Virus record (IMG/VR): IMGVR_UViG_2648501802_000003
Source of the DNA: a virus
Taxonomy: Duplodnaviria > Heunggongvirae > Uroviricota > Caudoviricetes
Direction: 5' to 3' (one strand)
DNA: 47,423 nucleotides
This document shows, piece by piece, positions 39,132-45,516 of the stretch; position 1 is the first letter of the stretch; each line of letters starts with the position of its first letter. The position numbers were made by a program, and so were the translations under genes. The notes under the pieces are model-generated. The model did no database searches. It had not been told where the DNA came from and saw only the letters and a program-made list of their open reading frames with translations.

Positions 39132-40057
39132 AGCTCCACCCCGTAAATCCAGTCAGTGTTCGTCAGGTCGAGTTTTGGTTTGCCGGCTGTCACGCCAGCC
39201 TGTTGCTTGTTTCGGTTGATTTCGAGCTGGGTCCACTTGTCGCGGAGTTTGGCCGGACTTAGCACGTTACCGGACCAGAAGTTGTCCTGGCATGCCCAGC
39301 GGAACAGCACGCACATGTCGCGGTGGTTACGTCCGTCACGTTCACGCATCAGGCGGATATCGTTAGCCCACCCTGCAAAATTCGGTTTTCTGGCTGATGG
39401 CGCGATGGTCTTCACCATGTCAAACATCCACTCTGCGGCGGTCAGGTCTTCTGCTGTCCCCCACTTGCTGCCGCTCTGAATTGCAGCATCCGGTTTCACC
39501 ACAGGAAGATCGTTTTCTGGTTGGTCAGAGGATTCGCCAGAATTCTCGGACGAAAAAGGTTTTATATTGTCTTTTGTTAGTTTGTCTTTTGTGTTTACCT
39601 GATTCGGGTAAACGCCTTTACCTGATTTGGGTAAACTTTTTTTACCTGATTCAGGTAAATTTACCTCTTTCAGGTAAACTTTATTTTTCTTACCTGATTC
39701 GGGTAATGTTGACCATTCACTGACCACATTATTAATGCCGGTATTCCGCCCGCTCTGAATAAAAATCCCACGCTTTACCAGAACACTTTTTGCAGCAGAA
39801 CACTTGTGCGGCAATATCCCGGTTAATTCGGAAAGTTGCTCGTTGCTAACCCAATCCAGTTTTTTATTAAAGCCATATGTTTTGCGCATGACAGCCAGAA
39901 AGACCAGAAGCTGGTGCTGTGTTAATCCGGCCAGCATCACAGCTTCCAGCAACTCATTTGCAATGCGCGTATAACCATCATCGAGATCTGCCACGCGCGG
40001 CTCCTTTTGTGCCGCATCCGGCACTGGAAAATTGAATATCTCAGCAGTGTTTGCCAT
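39128..40057 (-). CDS. O: Replication initiator O (iteron-binding)
   Basis: Track ORF 39128..40147; probable start ATG 40057 with RBS GGGAGGA (MANTAEIFNFPVPDAAQKEPRVADLDDGY...); lambda-O-like N-terminal domain; ori iterons lie inside the gene. Confidence 0.8.
   Translation of the reverse strand: MANTAEIFNFPVPDAAQKEPRVADLDDGYTRIANELLEAVMLAGLTQHQLLVFLAVMRKTYGFNKKLDWVSNEQLSELTGILPHKCSAAKSVLVKRGIFIQSGRNTGINNVVSEWSTLPESGKKNKVYLKEVNLPESGKKSLPKSGKGVYPNQVNTKDKLTKDNIKPFSSENSGESSDQPENDLPVVKPDAAIQSGSKWGTAEDLTAAEWMFDMVKTIAPSARKPNFAGWANDIRLMRERDGRNHRDMCVLFRWACQDNFWSGNVLSPAKLRDKWTQLEINRNKQQAGVTAGKPKLDLTNTDWIYGVEL
39595..39708. repeat. Origin of replication iterons (about five ~19-20 bp direct repeats, consensus TTACCTGATTYGGGTAAAC) within O
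   Basis: Repeats seen at about 39595, 39617, 39642, 39661 and 39690, with an adjacent AT-rich stretch; they encode the repeated LPESGKK peptide in O. Confidence 0.65.
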
Positions 40058-40143
40058 AATTCCTCCCGCAATGAGTGTGTTACGATTTGCACCTGAAAGT
40101 CGGTTCTGTTCCAGCAGACCGGCTTTCGCCATTTCTGAACCTG

Positions 40144-40683
40144 TCATATCGCCCCCAGCATGGTAGTAACCATCGCCATCAATGGACCAGCCAGATCTGG
40201 GTCCACACGAAACATCGACACAATACCTTCACTAATTTCCTTCAGTTTCTGGTGGCGTGGTGCGTTGAGAATGACAGCCTGTTTTGCCTCACTGAGTTCC
40301 TTTTCCATTTCAGCCAACCTAGCCATGAAGCTATCCTGCTCAACCAGGTAACCGCGATATTCCAGCGGTAGTACCGCCAGAATTGCCGGGGTCAGTTCAC
40401 GCACGTTATTTCGGTATTTTTCAGAATCGAATTTGTTATCGAGGAAGCGGAACAGCTTCTGGCGTGCACGGCTGACATCATCAGGGAAATCGATGGTGCC
40501 GCCGCCCTGCTCCCGATACTCATTCACAATGAGTGTGGCAACGACATCCTGATTATCTACAGCCGACCAGGCGCGGACGGCATCACGGATTTTTTCGTGG
40601 CCTGGCACCTGTTTTGTTTGAGAACGATTTATCACCGCAGTCGGGCTAAATCCGCTAGTCTGTTGGTATGTAAGTGGTTGCAT
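40144..40683 (-). CDS. CII-position regulatory protein (possibly CP76/CII-like family), 179 aa
   Basis: ORF between cro and O where lambda has cII; family assignment is from vague recollection only. Confidence 0.45.
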   Translation of the reverse strand: MQPLTYQQTSGFSPTAVINRSQTKQVPGHEKIRDAVRAWSAVDNQDVVATLIVNEYREQGGGTIDFPDDVSRARQKLFRFLDNKFDSEKYRNNVRELTPAILAVLPLEYRGYLVEQDSFMARLAEMEKELSEAKQAVILNAPRHQKLKEISEGIVSMFRVDPDLAGPLMAMVTTMLGAI

Positions 40684-40728
40684 AATTGCTCCTTTAGTTT
40701 GAATTGACTGTTAAGTTGATTGCTTATT

Positions 40729-40739
40729 GTTAAAGAGCG
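40729..40739 (-). promoter_or_regulatory. boxA-like element (CGCTCTTTAAC on the minus strand) at the nutR position
   Basis: Plus strand GTTAAAGAGCG between cro stop and the CII-like start; matches the boxA consensus CGCTCTT(T)A; no lambda-like boxB hairpin seen nearby. Confidence 0.4.
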
Positions 40740-40751
40740 TGAAATGGAAAT

Positions 40752-40982
40752 TTAAGCTGCGTTCTTTTCGGTGTGTGGAAACAACTTCGGAAGATCCGGG
40801 CGAATCTGGTATGCCTTCACTACTCCACCAGTAGCCGTAACAATGCTGCCGACATGTTCAGGGGATACCTTTGCTTTGTTGTGAAGCCACTTATAGACGG
40901 CCTGCTGTGAAACTTCGCAAGCAGCGCCCAGTTTCTTTTGTGAACCAACGATATTGATCGCTGTTTTGATAGCTGGGTTCAT
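40752..40982 (-). CDS. cro: Cro-like HTH repressor
   Basis: 76-aa ORF with HTH (SQKKLGAACEVSQQAVYKWL); RBS GGAGG; divergent from cI across an operator-containing intergenic region. Confidence 0.75.
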   Translation of the reverse strand: MNPAIKTAINIVGSQKKLGAACEVSQQAVYKWLHNKAKVSPEHVGSIVTATGGVVKAYQIRPDLPKLFPHTEKNAA

Positions 40983-41086
40983 AACAACCTCCGTGGTTAA
41001 TTTGAATCAAGATTAAAACTATGGTTGTTTTTAGTCAACAACCATTTTCGTTTGATGGAATAAAACCTTGGTTGTACATTTGGACT
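40983..41086. promoter_or_regulatory. oR-like operator/promoter region (divergent pR and pRM equivalents)
   Basis: Inverted repeat ATGGTTGTT-N7-AACAACCAT at 41021-41045 plus further AACAAC/GTTGTT motifs between divergent cro and cI. Confidence 0.55.
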
Positions 41087-41776
41087 ATGAAAACAACACT
41101 CTCAGAAAGACTTAAAGAAGCCAGATTAGCGCGAGGCCTTACACAAAAGGCGCTTGGGGATTTGGTCGGGGTTAGCCAGGCTGCTATTCAGAAAATCGAA
41201 ACAGGGAAAGCTAATCAAACAACTAAAATCGTGGAGATCGCGAACGCTTTGGGTGTGCGCGCAGAATGGTTATCTTCTGGCGTTGGAAATATGTCAGACA
41301 GTACAGTGCAACCAATACAATCAACTGTCAGCCATTCCAAATACTTCAAGATTGACGTTCTTGATATAGAAGTCAGTGCTGGGCCGGGAGTCATCAACCG
41401 TGAGTTTGTAGAAGTTCTACGCTCGGTTGAGTACTCGTTTGACGATGCTCGTCACATGTTCGATGGTAGGAAGGCGGAAAATATCCGCATCATTAACGTG
41501 CGTGGTGACAGCATGTCAGGAACGATCGAACCAGGTGATCTGCTGTTCGTTGATATCACAGTTAAATCTTTCGACGGTGATGGTATCTATGCGTTTCTGT
41601 ACGACGACACAGCCCATGTAAAGCGCCTGCAAATGATGAAGGATAAGCTGCTGGTCATCTCTGATAACAAAAGCTACTCACCGTGGGACCCGATCGAGAA
41701 AGACGAGATGAACCGGGTGTTCATCTTCGGTAAGGTTATTGGGAGCATGCCGCAGACATATAGGAAGCATGGGTAG
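41087..41776 (+). CDS. cI: CI-type prophage repressor (HTH plus S24 LexA-like autocleavage domain)
   Basis: Track ORF 41021..41776; likely start ATG 41087 (MKTTLSERLKEARLARGLTQKALGDLVGVSQAAIQKIETGK...); C-terminal part has the GDSM motif; no SD before 41087, consistent with a leaderless pRM-type transcript. Confidence 0.8.
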   Translation: MKTTLSERLKEARLARGLTQKALGDLVGVSQAAIQKIETGKANQTTKIVEIANALGVRAEWLSSGVGNMSDSTVQPIQSTVSHSKYFKIDVLDIEVSAGPGVINREFVEVLRSVEYSFDDARHMFDGRKAENIRIINVRGDSMSGTIEPGDLLFVDITVKSFDGDGIYAFLYDDTAHVKRLQMMKDKLLVISDNKSYSPWDPIEKDEMNRVFIFGKVIGSMPQTYRKHG

Positions 41777-41897
41777 TACCAATTAAAAATTATCAACTGG
41801 GCATTGTGCTCATTCAGTAAAGAACTAATTCCTATCTTTGCTCTAGGTAGTAATATTAAGCCACCGCAATAATATCTTTACCTAACGGCGTAAGAAT

Positions 41898-41925
41898 CCC
41901 GGTCACCGTGCCGGGTTTTCTTTTG
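41898..41925 (+). terminator. Rho-independent terminator candidate after cI
   Basis: Stem CCCGG / CCGGG with 8-nt loop followed by TTTTCTTTTG. Confidence 0.5.
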
Positions 41926-42051
41926 CCCTCCCCTCATCACACACACCGTTAAAAAAACCACCATAACCTCGCTTCAGTTATCGCTATGCGATTCAAGTCA
42001 CAAAATAAATCCATCCTAAATACAACCAGTTATATCTAAAGCAACCAATAA

Positions 42052-42094
42052 AACAACTTTTGTTGTTGACGATAAAACAACTATAGTTTTAAAT
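42052..42094 (+). promoter_or_regulatory. pL-like promoter with operator repeats (candidate -35 TTGACG 42066-42071, -10 TTAAAT 42089-42094)
   Basis: Palindrome AACAACTTTTGTTGTT at 42052-42067 overlapping the -35; additional AACAAC copies at 42076-42081 and about 42107-42112. Confidence 0.45.
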
Positions 42095-42287
42095 AAGTTC
42101 ATCGCAACAACACAACGATACGGCAACTACCTGATTCACCGTTGCGATGACCGCTTAGATCCGCAGTTTGAATTTCAGCAGGCTTCGGGGAGTGCGAGGG
42201 GTGAAACGGACGCGTGAACGTCGGTGTGACCAGCTGAAATTAACTCAACATTTCATACCTTAGTCGCTTCAACGAGGCGGCTTAGTT

Positions 42288-42578
42288 ATGACAACCGGCG
42301 GCCATCCACCGCCTGAATACGCGCAGAAGTCTCTATATGTTCAGCAGCCCAGCTTACGGGCAGGAGTTTTTATGGTTCATCAACATTATGGAACGCAGAC
42401 CGTTAATCGAGGTGCGGTCATGCCAGGAATGCTGGTCAAACACAAAGATGGTACCTGGACTGCATCAGCTAATTTACGCGGACGGCTTTATCTGCATCGC
42501 GGCATCGAGCGCACTTATACCCGTGATTTGCTCGTGGAAGTTTTTCTCGACGGACGCGGTAACGGCCTGAATCACTAA
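42288..42578 (+). CDS. Hypothetical protein at the N/kil position of the pL operon (alternative start ATG 42372 with strong RBS gives 68 aa)
   Basis: 96-aa ORF; no arginine-rich motif, so not a recognisable N; the internal ATG 42372 has AGGAG 5 nt upstream. Confidence 0.4.
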
Positions 42579-42653
42579 TCCCCTTTCCTGTTTTCCTAAT
42601 CAGCCTGGCATTTCGCGGGCGATATTTTCACAGCCATTTTCAGGAGGTCAGCC

Positions 42654-42950
42654 ATGAACGCTTATTACATTCAGGATCGTCTTGAGGCTCAGAGCTGGGC
42701 GCGTCACTACCAGCAGATCGCCCGTGAAGAGAAAGAGGCAGAACTGGCAGACGACATGGAAAAAGGCCTGCCCCAGCACCTGTTTGAATCGCTATGCATC
42801 GATCATTTGCAACGCCACGGGGCCAGCAAAAAAGCCATTACCCGTGCGTTTGATGACGATGTTGAGTTTCAGGAGCGCATGGCAGAACACATCCAGTACA
42901 TGGTTGAAACCATTGCTCACCACCAGGTTGATATTGATTCAGAGGTATAA
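42654..42950 (+). CDS. gam: Gam (RecBCD inhibitor), short isoform
   Basis: 98-aa [63 protein letters not shown]... matches recalled lambda GamS; RBS GGAGG. Confidence 0.9.
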
Positions 42951-42955
42951 AACGG

Positions 42956-43741
42956 ATGAGTACAGCACTCGCAACGCTGGCAGGGAAGCTGGCTGAACGT
43001 GTCGGCATGGATTCTGTCGACCCACAGGAACTGATCACCACTCTTCGCCAGACGGCATTTAAAGGTGATGCCAGCGATGCGCAGTTCATCGCATTGTTGA
43101 TCGTCGCCAACCAGTACGGCCTTAATCCGTGGACGAAAGAAATTTACGCCTTCCCTGATAAGCAGAACGGCATCGTTCCGGTGGTGGGCGTTGATGGCTG
43201 GTCCCGCATCATCAATGAAAACCAGCAGTTTGATGGCATGGACTTTGAGCAGGACAATGAATCCTGTACATGCCGGATTTACCGCAAGGACCGTAATCAT
43301 CCGATCTGCGTTACCGAATGGATGGATGAATGCCGCCGCGAACCATTCAAAACTCGCGAAGGCAGAGAAATCACGGGGCCGTGGCAGTCGCATCCCAAAC
43401 GGATGTTACGGCATAAAGCCATGATTCAGTGTGCCCGTCTGGCCTTCGGATTTGCTGGTATCTATGACAAGGATGAAGCCGAGCGCATTGTCGAAAATAC
43501 TGCATACACTGCAGAACGTCAGCCAGAACGCGACATCACTCCGGTTAACGATGAAACCATGCAGGAGATTAACACTCTGCTGATCGCCCTGGATAAAACA
43601 TGGGATGACGACTTATTGCCGCTCTGTTCCCAGATATTTCGCCGCGACATTCGCGCATCGTCAGAACTGACACAGGCCGAAGCAGTGAAAGCTCTTGGAT
43701 TCCTGAAACAGAAAGCCACTGAGCAGAAGGTGGCAGCATGA
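42956..43741 (+). CDS. bet: Bet (Red-beta single-strand annealing recombinase)
   Basis: 261-aa [69 protein letters not shown]... matches recalled lambda Bet. Confidence 0.95.
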
Positions 43742-45418: not shown

Positions 45419-45516
45419 ACATGAAAAGCAAAATCATCAGGGAGCTACAGGCTCCTTTTTTATTGTTCGCATTCATCCTCAAGCGTATTAACCAACAATT
45501 CAGGGATTAATGGAAG

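Follow-up and report, generated by a model that had tools for sequence, protein, structure and literature searches.

The prophage analysed here, IMG/VR virus record IMGVR_UViG_2648501802_000003 (47,423 nucleotides (nt); this whole stretch is called the window below), has no gene for an N-type antiterminator at the head of its early-left operon, where a non-coding leader and the gene kil follow the promoter pL. The interpretation that we favour, with somewhat better than even confidence, is that this operon is N-independent and carries a structured 5' untranslated region (UTR) as its leader, and that a boxA element on the pR transcript most likely recruits the host Nus complex. Transcription from pL would run straight into kil and the recombination genes (gam-bet-exo) without a dedicated antiterminator. 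In the leader, acting as a structured 5' UTR, the 5'-terminal stem-loop would protect the mRNA end, and the G-rich constrained core together with the hairpins downstream of it would modulate the stability of the toxic kil message, its translation or the access of Rho to it, with no modification of RNA polymerase. The boxA after cro would bring the host NusB/NusE complex to the pR transcript, either to shield it from Rho, as in rrn, or to control how ydaT is translated. The window prophage joins the known class of N-less lambdoid phages, and no new mechanism was demonstrated. The coordinates of the features are compiled in Table 1.

Absence of N and the first gene of the pL operon

The tblastn search using phi80 N, HK022 Nun, lambda N and P22 gp24 as queries detected no homologue of N, Nun or phi80 N in the six frames of the window (all E > 0.8). 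An N-type gene was also absent from the RefSeq (PGAP) annotation of an identical prophage, and the PHROGs search gave no N-family match among the small proteins of the pL operon. An initial annotation of the sequence had reported no recognisable N antiterminator in the slot next to pL; tblastn, annotation and PHROGs together extended this absence to the whole window.

In that slot, the same annotation had described an open reading frame (ORF) of 96 amino acids (aa; 42288-42578), or of 68 aa from ATG 42372 behind a strong ribosome-binding site (RBS), and had offered a divergent antiterminator or a kil-like gene as its identity. Both forms of the ORF were confirmed. The profile search matched Kil families and no N family: PHROG 294 was found with E = 1.3e-37 covering residues 1-68, and NCBIfam NF008465 'FtsZ inhibitor protein' with E = 4e-17 at 61.9 bits, under the curated cutoff of 92 bits. 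Pairwise identity was 41% to phi80 Kil and 36% to Rac KilR, with M1 aligned with M1. The kil-like alternative was correct, and the divergent antiterminator was rejected as only Kil families were matched. By homology, the ORF at 42372-42578 is the gene of a Kil/KilR-type division inhibitor, for which inhibition of FtsZ is taken from the family annotation and the papers on Rac KilR. The start at 42372 was supported because M1 of Rac KilR aligns to this ATG and RefSeq uses the same start, and the 96-aa form from the upstream in-frame ATG 42288 is probably unused. Two phage records, PV340567 (locus L002, 3877-4263) and OV696612 (L092, 5249-5668), carry an annotated 'Kil' of 128-139 aa that starts inside the leader (window equivalent 42159-42578). 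These long annotations arise because the codon TAG at 42261 is CAG in most variants of the leader, and their starts are probably mis-set, the extension being without a coding signature.

The comparison with phi80 defined what stands in the place of N. The order in phi80 is pL, nutL, N, tL1A, a segment shared with the window, tL1B and kil. The block of approximately 730 base pairs (bp) from the nutL boxA through N to tL1A (L004, 1834-2560) is replaced in the window by an orphan segment of 116 nt of unrelated sequence, termed the type A segment, which is joined directly to the post-tL1A sequence. With nutL-N-tL1A replaced, no pL-proximal terminator is left and an N protein would have nothing to overcome. 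The terminator scan found no intrinsic terminator between pL and kil.

The shared segment (42251-42315) contains a hairpin at 42262-42282 with GAGG in its 3' arm (z = -2.8), the ATG at 42288 (MTTGGHPPP) and a second hairpin at 42297-42313 (z = -2.35). The variants of the first hairpin were wobble-consistent, and the alignment with phi80 suggests one G-C to A-U double change in it. The sequence held in common is the hairpin followed by ATG ACA ACC GGC GGC CAT CCA CC (MTTGGHPP), which in HK225 and HK639 stands directly after the terminator following N or put-proximal genes. Apart from this hairpin and start, phi80 shares with the window Kil and the first approximately 20 nt of the transcript (CATCGNAAC...), whereas in the window the small ORF continues in frame into kil. 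In phi80, HK225, HK639 and relatives, the MTTGGHPP(P) frame is a small ORF of 20-21 codons after tL1A (L004 2528-2590; L005 3017-3080; L109 1669-1734), conserved at the DNA level and with the GAGG held in the hairpin; given its proline run, it may be a stalling leader peptide placed before the Rho-dependent tL1B. The type A segment itself had no similarity to the put, phi80, HK639 or Rac leaders. A deletion remnant of a phi80-type nutL-N was accordingly rejected as the origin of the leader, since similarity was limited to the first approximately 20 nt and the post-tL1A segment.

The pL-kil interval proved to be a cassette site in Kil-anchored loci of other genera, being occupied by a phi80-type N, a truncated put-like piece (L157), a 'type B' leader, or only approximately 70 nt. 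The leaders of only approximately 70 nt indicate that no device is required between pL and kil. When compared with the lambda-type N/nut systems of lambda, P22 and phage 21, the window has the same arrangement of cI-pL on one side and pR-cro-boxA-cII-like-O-P on the other, including a boxA in the nutR position fitting the rrn-type consensus, but it is devoid of an N gene, a boxB after boxA, a boxA on the pL transcript and a tL1-type terminator after pL.

The leader between pL and kil

Operator palindromes (AACAAC-N4-GTTGTT) overlap pL at 42052-42067 and 42076-42090, and the motif recurs near pR at 41021-41045. This pL/operator segment is exchanged as a block between immunity types, with the leader unchanged: the leader stands behind three different pL/operator (immunity) modules, with the swap point at approximately 42135 in one of them (60 distinct variants from IMG/VR and RefSeq). 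The distance from the -10 element of pL to the ATG of gam (42654) is approximately 560 bp, in agreement with the short interval of about 550 bp claimed initially. The leader (42100-42262) was present in 2208 of the 5426 complete E. coli genomes (approximately 41%), where it is unannotated.

Nucleotide diversity (pi) was 0.025 for 42135-42250 and 0.018 for 42251-42371, when compared with 0.047-0.054 for the third codon positions of kil, gam and bet and 0.034 for the kil-gam spacer. A G-rich core of 33 nt (42208-42240) was essentially invariant across 61 distinct variants, and the chance of such a near-invariant run was approximately 0.002 by our own binomial estimate. The leader is thus under some constraint, given a diversity about half that of third codon positions and the invariant core. 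The Kil-anchored scans of IMG/VR and GTDB found no diverged homologues of the leader, the matches being near-identical E. coli copies or other leader types. In the searchable literature, no paper was found that quotes the core sequence or that connects DLP12 or Bievrevirus with the absence of N.

Among the predicted structures of the leader, the 5'-terminal stem-loop of the pL transcript had the best support, the 42262-42282 hairpin came second, and the inverted repeat at 42171-42241 was last. Of the 60 sequences compared for the 5' stem-loop, 32 have U-G in place of C-G and 16 have G-U in place of A-U; in both cases wobble preserves the pairing. The long imperfect inverted repeat downstream of pL does exist as described in the initial annotation. 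Its perfect core of 9 bp had a chance expectation of approximately 0.1 at this spacing within 270 nt, a borderline value by our own estimate, and the fold of 42165-42246 gave z = -1.9. The commonest variants break its predicted pairs (42241C in 48 of the 61 variants, also 42167C and 42185C), no double compensatory changes were present in the stem among the variants, and RNAalifold favoured other pairings. The idea of a structured leader RNA was partly supported, the leader being conserved and modular; the inverted repeat added little to it, as its stem was not recovered as a consensus structure, common variants break its outer pairs and the covariation test found no compensatory changes. The Rfam search of 40000-43200 (E <= 10) returned only four chance-level matches to microRNA, ctRNA and small RNA (sRNA) models (E = 1.1-8.7), and the same search of the loci of two relatives likewise gave chance-level matches only.

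A few sequence peculiarities of the leader were also recorded. The first 65 nt of the pL transcript (42100-42164) are C-rich, G-poor and rut-like (34% C, 18.5% G), whereas the next 80 nt (42165-42245) are strongly G-rich, with up to 45% G in 42180-42232; this contrast may bear on Rho loading. The sole sigma-70-like match of the promoter scan in 40400-43000 lies on the minus strand at 42107-42080 (TTGCGA, 16 nt, TATAGT), pointing leftward from the leader into the pL operators and overlapping the 5' stem-loop, and is probably due to chance. The leader further contains, at 42127-42138, TACCTGATTCA, which is identical to half of an iteron of the replication origin (TTTACCTGATTCGGGTAA, present five times in the O gene, 39590-39706); as a single half-site (blast E = 1.7) it may also be a chance occurrence.

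The initial annotation had speculated on a protein-independent antitermination element like HK022 put. A covariance model of put (R1) was built from 16 putL variants of IMG/VR and HK022 putR and searched with filters off. It scored 95.8 bits for HK022 putL, 49 bits for HK022 putR and 97 bits for HK639 putL, and gave no match in 40000-43000 of the window, the best window matches (E >= 4) lying elsewhere. No sequence similarity of the leader to put was detected by blastn-short or Smith-Waterman comparison, and no second copy of the leader was present near pR or anywhere in the window. With covariance model, sequence comparison and pR-side copy all negative, the put-like reading failed: membership of the leader in the put family was rejected on these sequence criteria, and a put-like function was left without positive support. 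Like HK022 and HK639, the window represents a lambdoid phage that lacks N and has conserved non-coding sequence right behind pL, but it differs in that its segment is negative for put by model and sequence, is present in a single copy, and shows no covariation support for the two-stem put architecture. The put-like piece of L157 (approximately 2330-2400), located between pL and kil, comprises only the first half of an HK639-like put (GGGGATTCGGTGAGACGAACGCCGTC...), is not scored by the put model, and is apparently a truncated put.

The K-12 prophage Rac offered another comparison, as its kilR locus also has a KilR-family gene heading an N-less early-left operon next to YdaS/YdaT-type immunity, with a structured non-coding leader upstream. 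Rac kilR is silenced through NusG/Rho, according to the papers on Rac KilR. The type B leader of other relatives has a 19-bp closing stem with U-A / U-G / C-G covariation, and its hairpin is homologous to that before kilR in Rac: the 18 pairs are all conserved, five of them through double compensatory changes. In Rac this hairpin directly follows the annotated 98-nt sRNA KilS. By eye, the inverted repeat of the window resembles the Rac/type B hairpin in the order of pairs and the place of an A bulge. Homology was rejected, being unsupported by covariance models or sequence comparison: the models R2 (type B alone) and R3 (type B and Rac), run with filters off, had no match at 42165-42245, although R3 found Rac at 54.9 bits, and the comparison of the window leader with the Rac region remained at chance level. 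The window further differs from Rac in having no homologue of KilS in its leader, no internal terminator and an intact cI/pL in front.

The long hairpin with a stem of 18-19 bp stands immediately upstream of the kil RBS in K-12 Rac (L303, 4745-5003, minus strand) and in Citrobacter, Kluyvera, Enterobacter and other prophages, and has no Rfam family. The type B loci (L094-L182) carry it approximately 110 nt upstream of kil (e.g. L127, 2395-2485). The type B hairpin belongs to kil rather than to antitermination, because it is also found in phages with a phi80-type N (L109, L111). Its 3' arm (e.g. L127, approximately 2462-2475, CACCACCAGCG) contains CCACCAGC, the complement of Chi GCTGGTGG, just upstream of the recombination genes. 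Many type B relatives (L127, approximately 2250-2340; L121, L135, L142) also have a GC-rich segment of approximately 85 nt directly after pL (CCACC...GCCGTCCGGGGCATACGAAGACCGGAATGAGGTGG) with apparent compensatory changes (TCCGG/CCGGA vs GCCGAC/GTCGGA) and no match to the put model, which could be another pL-proximal RNA element.

Several other explanations of the leader were weighed beside that of a structured 5' UTR. The type A segment could be a scar without function, left when recombination removed nutL-N-tL1A and conserved only since the prophage family is young and clonal. All known copies do come from E. coli and share at least 90% identity, and compensatory changes are lacking; yet a diversity of about half that of third codon positions, lower than in the kil-gam spacer, a 33-nt run of this improbability across the 61 variants, and persistence across three immunity modules make such a scar unlikely. 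Still less probable, in our judgement, is a new class of cis-acting antiterminator RNA (42135-42250), a put analogue that would bind polymerase and make N dispensable. The segment is placed exactly where relatives have nutL-N or putL, directly after pL, stays with the operon in all three immunity types in the manner of nutL in lambda-imm434 hybrids, has the invariant core and reduced diversity, and is followed downstream by a terminator before xis/int. Against this stand the negative put model and put sequence comparison, the missing pR-side copy, unlike putL/putR, the lack of covariation with a predicted fold unstable across the variants, and the relatives with leaders of approximately 70 nt, which indicate that the operon can dispense with the element. 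The wider proposal, in which the 116-nt segment would act on early-left transcription as a previously unrecognised cis-acting RNA against termination or Rho, in the lambdoid prophage family most common in E. coli, while on the pR side the bare boxA borrows the rrn complex, amounting to a protein-free, N-independent solution distinct from put, is an equally long shot. We are as doubtful that the leader yields a small regulatory RNA, as the Rac kilR 5' UTR yields KilS: Rac does carry KilS immediately upstream of the long hairpin and kilR, and the likeness of the inverted repeat to that hairpin is visible by eye, but neither the Rac/type B covariance models nor sequence similarity connects the two leaders, and no internal terminator in the window leader would release a small RNA. 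Scarcely any weight was given to a coding function, in which the only arginine-rich frame, located in the leader (42168-42263, RLRGVRGVKRTRERRCDQ, 31 aa), would encode a mini-N peptide or, in relatives, an N-terminal RNA-binding extension of Kil. Its KRTRERR resembles the arginine-rich motifs of N proteins, the CAG in place of TAG 42261 in 48 of the 61 variants joins the frame to kil, and the long 'Kil' annotations exist in some phage records. The frame was nevertheless rejected, as it lacks both an ATG and a usable RBS, the stop codon at its end is polymorphic, variants with a 5-nt insertion shift the frame, only about 5 of 17 substitutions are synonymous, which is close to neutral, no family matches were obtained, and M1 of Rac KilR aligns downstream at ATG 42372.

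boxA and terminators on the early transcripts

The boxA-like motif after cro noticed in the initial annotation turned out to be stronger than claimed. The 12-mer GCTCTTTAACAA (40727-40738, minus strand) matched the rrn-type consensus at 12 of 12 positions and occurred as one exact copy in the 47-kb window, where approximately 0.006 exact matches were expected by chance in 2 x 47 kb (own calculation). It also fits the published gamma-proteobacterial boxA consensus GYTCTTTAANA. Folding confirmed that no boxB-like local hairpin of the lambda type follows it; the sole predicted pairing nearby was that of GCUCUUU with the Shine-Dalgarno (SD) sequence of ydaT, AAAGGAGC (-5.9 kcal/mol, z = -2.2). On the pL leader, no boxA within 2 mismatches in sense orientation was found in the position of nutL, the two 2-mismatch matches lying inside kil and near xis. 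The boxA was present only with this cro/immunity type: sister phages that have the same replication, nin and early-left regions and another immunity contained none within 2 mismatches, and their cro-cII spacer is 24-30 nt. The boxA is consequently an accessory of one immunity module and not a requirement of the phage type.

Two specific roles were considered for this boxA beyond the general recruitment of the Nus complex in the favoured interpretation. In the rrn operons boxA alone suffices for anti-Rho antitermination. The phage element might similarly load NusB/E-NusA-NusG-SuhB and confer N-independent Rho resistance over the 9-kb pR transcript, through the moron genes to quuD. The exact and unique 12/12 match on the right strand at the nutR position, the lack of N and boxB, and a path from pR to Q that includes long stretches of moron or weakly coding sequence and is free of strong intrinsic terminators speak for such a role, which we hold to be possible if rather unlikely, because sister phages with the same replication-to-Q regions and other immunity do without boxA, so that it cannot be essential to the phage type, and because the pL transcript has none. 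The boxA might alternatively be a suhB-like autoregulatory or attenuator element that lowers translation of ydaT (cII-like), allows Rho termination and sets the lysis-lysogeny balance. Its position 44 nt upstream of the ATG reproduces the geometry that served to find suhB-type targets, and the pairing with the ydaT SD is predicted; this pairing is weak, the restriction of boxA to one immunity type removes comparative support, and the position is equally that of a classical nutR, leaving the suhB-like role a distinctly slimmer prospect than the rrn-like one. The window boxA resembles those of rrn and suhB in the perfect consensus match and, as at suhB, in lying less than 50 nt from a start codon, but differs in being a predicted Nus site on a phage pR transcript that is absent from sister immunity types.

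The scans for intrinsic terminators found no strong site between pR and quuD, only a modest hairpin after emrE, and a strong terminator after quuD, as expected for a target of Q. In the pL operon the only convincing intrinsic-terminator-like site is that upstream of the TraR/DksA-like gene, xis and int (Table 1).

Several points weigh against the favoured N-independent operon with a structured 5' UTR. We infer the function of the leader as a 5' UTR, and no covariation fixes a structure for 42165-42245. The constraint on the 33-nt core (42208-42240) exceeds what a passive 5' UTR would require. The terminator at 45439-45467 before xis/int and the hairpin after emrE toward quuD may still call for some read-through mechanism. 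The terminator scans cover intrinsic sites, and Rho-dependent terminators are not predictable by them. Moreover, we know of no documented role for a phage boxA in the absence of boxB or N.

About four in ten complete E. coli genomes, ST131 and some O157 strains among them, contain a leader-bearing prophage, and the early gene control of such prophages has so far been assumed by analogy with lambda. The present analysis corrects their annotation: N and put are both missing, the gene that opens the early-left operon is predicted to encode the toxic division inhibitor Kil, and nutL-N-tL1A has been swapped for an orphan, constrained non-coding segment. It also sharpens the question of how expression of Q, xis/int and the delayed-early genes comes about. 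Should either the leader or the solitary boxA act on RNA polymerase or Rho, it would represent a new route to phage antitermination; if not, the prophage family would be a natural example of a lambdoid phage dispensing with early antitermination altogether.

Gene layout of the prophage

By its gene content the window is a complete, intact lambdoid prophage of the DLP12 type, a type very common in E. coli. The RefSeq chromosome of E. coli S10 was 100% identical over the 877-nt region 41777-42653, and in its annotation over a window-length stretch the gene coordinates coincide with those of the ORFs of the window. The S10 prophage has intD at one end and appY at the other, and between them emrE, ybcK-ybcO (including ninE), rusA, quuD, a porin gene, essD/rrrD/rzpD and nohD are annotated. 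Over 41777-42653, the isolated phages PhiR34_1 and Turner were 99-99.9% identical and the Bievrevirus phages 4A7 and Perceval approximately 91% identical. DLP12 of E. coli K-12 and Bievrevirus 4A7 and Perceval resemble the window in the integrase end, the nin/moron region (emrE, ybcK-ybcO, rusA, quuD), and the lysis and recombination genes. The K-12 DLP12 has presumably lost its immunity and early-left regions, a difference from the window, which keeps both intact.

Around the immunity region, the minus strand carries P, O, the YdaT-family cII-like gene and the YdaS-family cro in this order, and the plus strand carries cI, a terminator hairpin, pL, the leader of approximately 270 nt, kil, gam, bet, exo, small genes and xis/int. 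The descriptive items of the initial annotation were all found at or near the positions given there.

Table 1. Features of the early regions of the window, with positions, strands and supporting evidence
Feature	Position	Strand	Evidence or description
cII-like activator, YdaT family	40144-40683	-	Pfam YdaT_toxin E=8.5e-30; PHROG 163 'CII-like transcriptional activator' E=4e-67
Consensus boxA CGCTCTTTAACAA	40727-40739	-	between cro and ydaT/cII-like gene, 44 nt upstream of ydaT ATG
cro-like repressor, YdaS family	40752-40982	-	Pfam YdaS_toxin E=4e-17, P22_Cro E=8e-5; PHROG 35
cI-type repressor (helix-turn-helix (HTH) and S24 peptidase)	41087-41776	+	Pfam Peptidase_S24 E=1e-18, HTH_3 E=5e-13; RefSeq annotation of identical prophage
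Intrinsic-terminator-like hairpin and T run ending the cI transcript	hairpin 41898-41915, with T run to 41925	+	terminator scan
pL promoter	TTGACG 42066-42071, 18-nt spacer, TAAATA 42090-42095	+	read from sequence
5'-terminal stem-loop of the pL transcript (TCATCGCAAC / GTTGCGATGA)	42099-42150	+	10-nt perfect inverted repeat; predicted fold -11.6 kcal/mol, z = -3.0
Orphan type A leader segment, 116 nt	42135-42250	+	holds inverted repeat 42171-42182/42230-42241 and 33-nt invariant G-rich core 42208-42240
Inverted repeat of the initial annotation, AATTTCAGCAGG / CCAGCTGAAATT	42171-42182 / 42230-42241	+	92% complementary, 47 nt apart
Homologue of the stretch directly behind N-tL1A in phi80-like phages	42251-42315	+	blastn matches to phi80, HK225, HK639 and others (alignment 42251-42313)
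kil, 68 aa, Kil/KilR-type FtsZ inhibitor (by homology)	42372-42578	+	RBS AGGAG 5 nt upstream of ATG; RefSeq annotates the same span
Only convincing intrinsic-terminator-like site in the pL operon	45439-45467	+	upstream of TraR/DksA-like gene, xis, int; -10.2 kcal/mol, z = -2.6, then UUUUUUAUUGUU

No plus-strand ORF of at least 30 aa was present between cI and pL (41777-42167). It follows that rexA/rexB and morons are absent there, which for rexA/rexB bore out the initial annotation. The cI-pL gap (41777-42050; L002, L006, L007, L008, L091, L092) is a hot spot of moron insertion; the window carries none, and the morons of its relatives in this gap encode GevT/GevA toxin-antitoxin, SIR2-family, ASCH-domain, BamE-like lipoprotein and transmembrane proteins.

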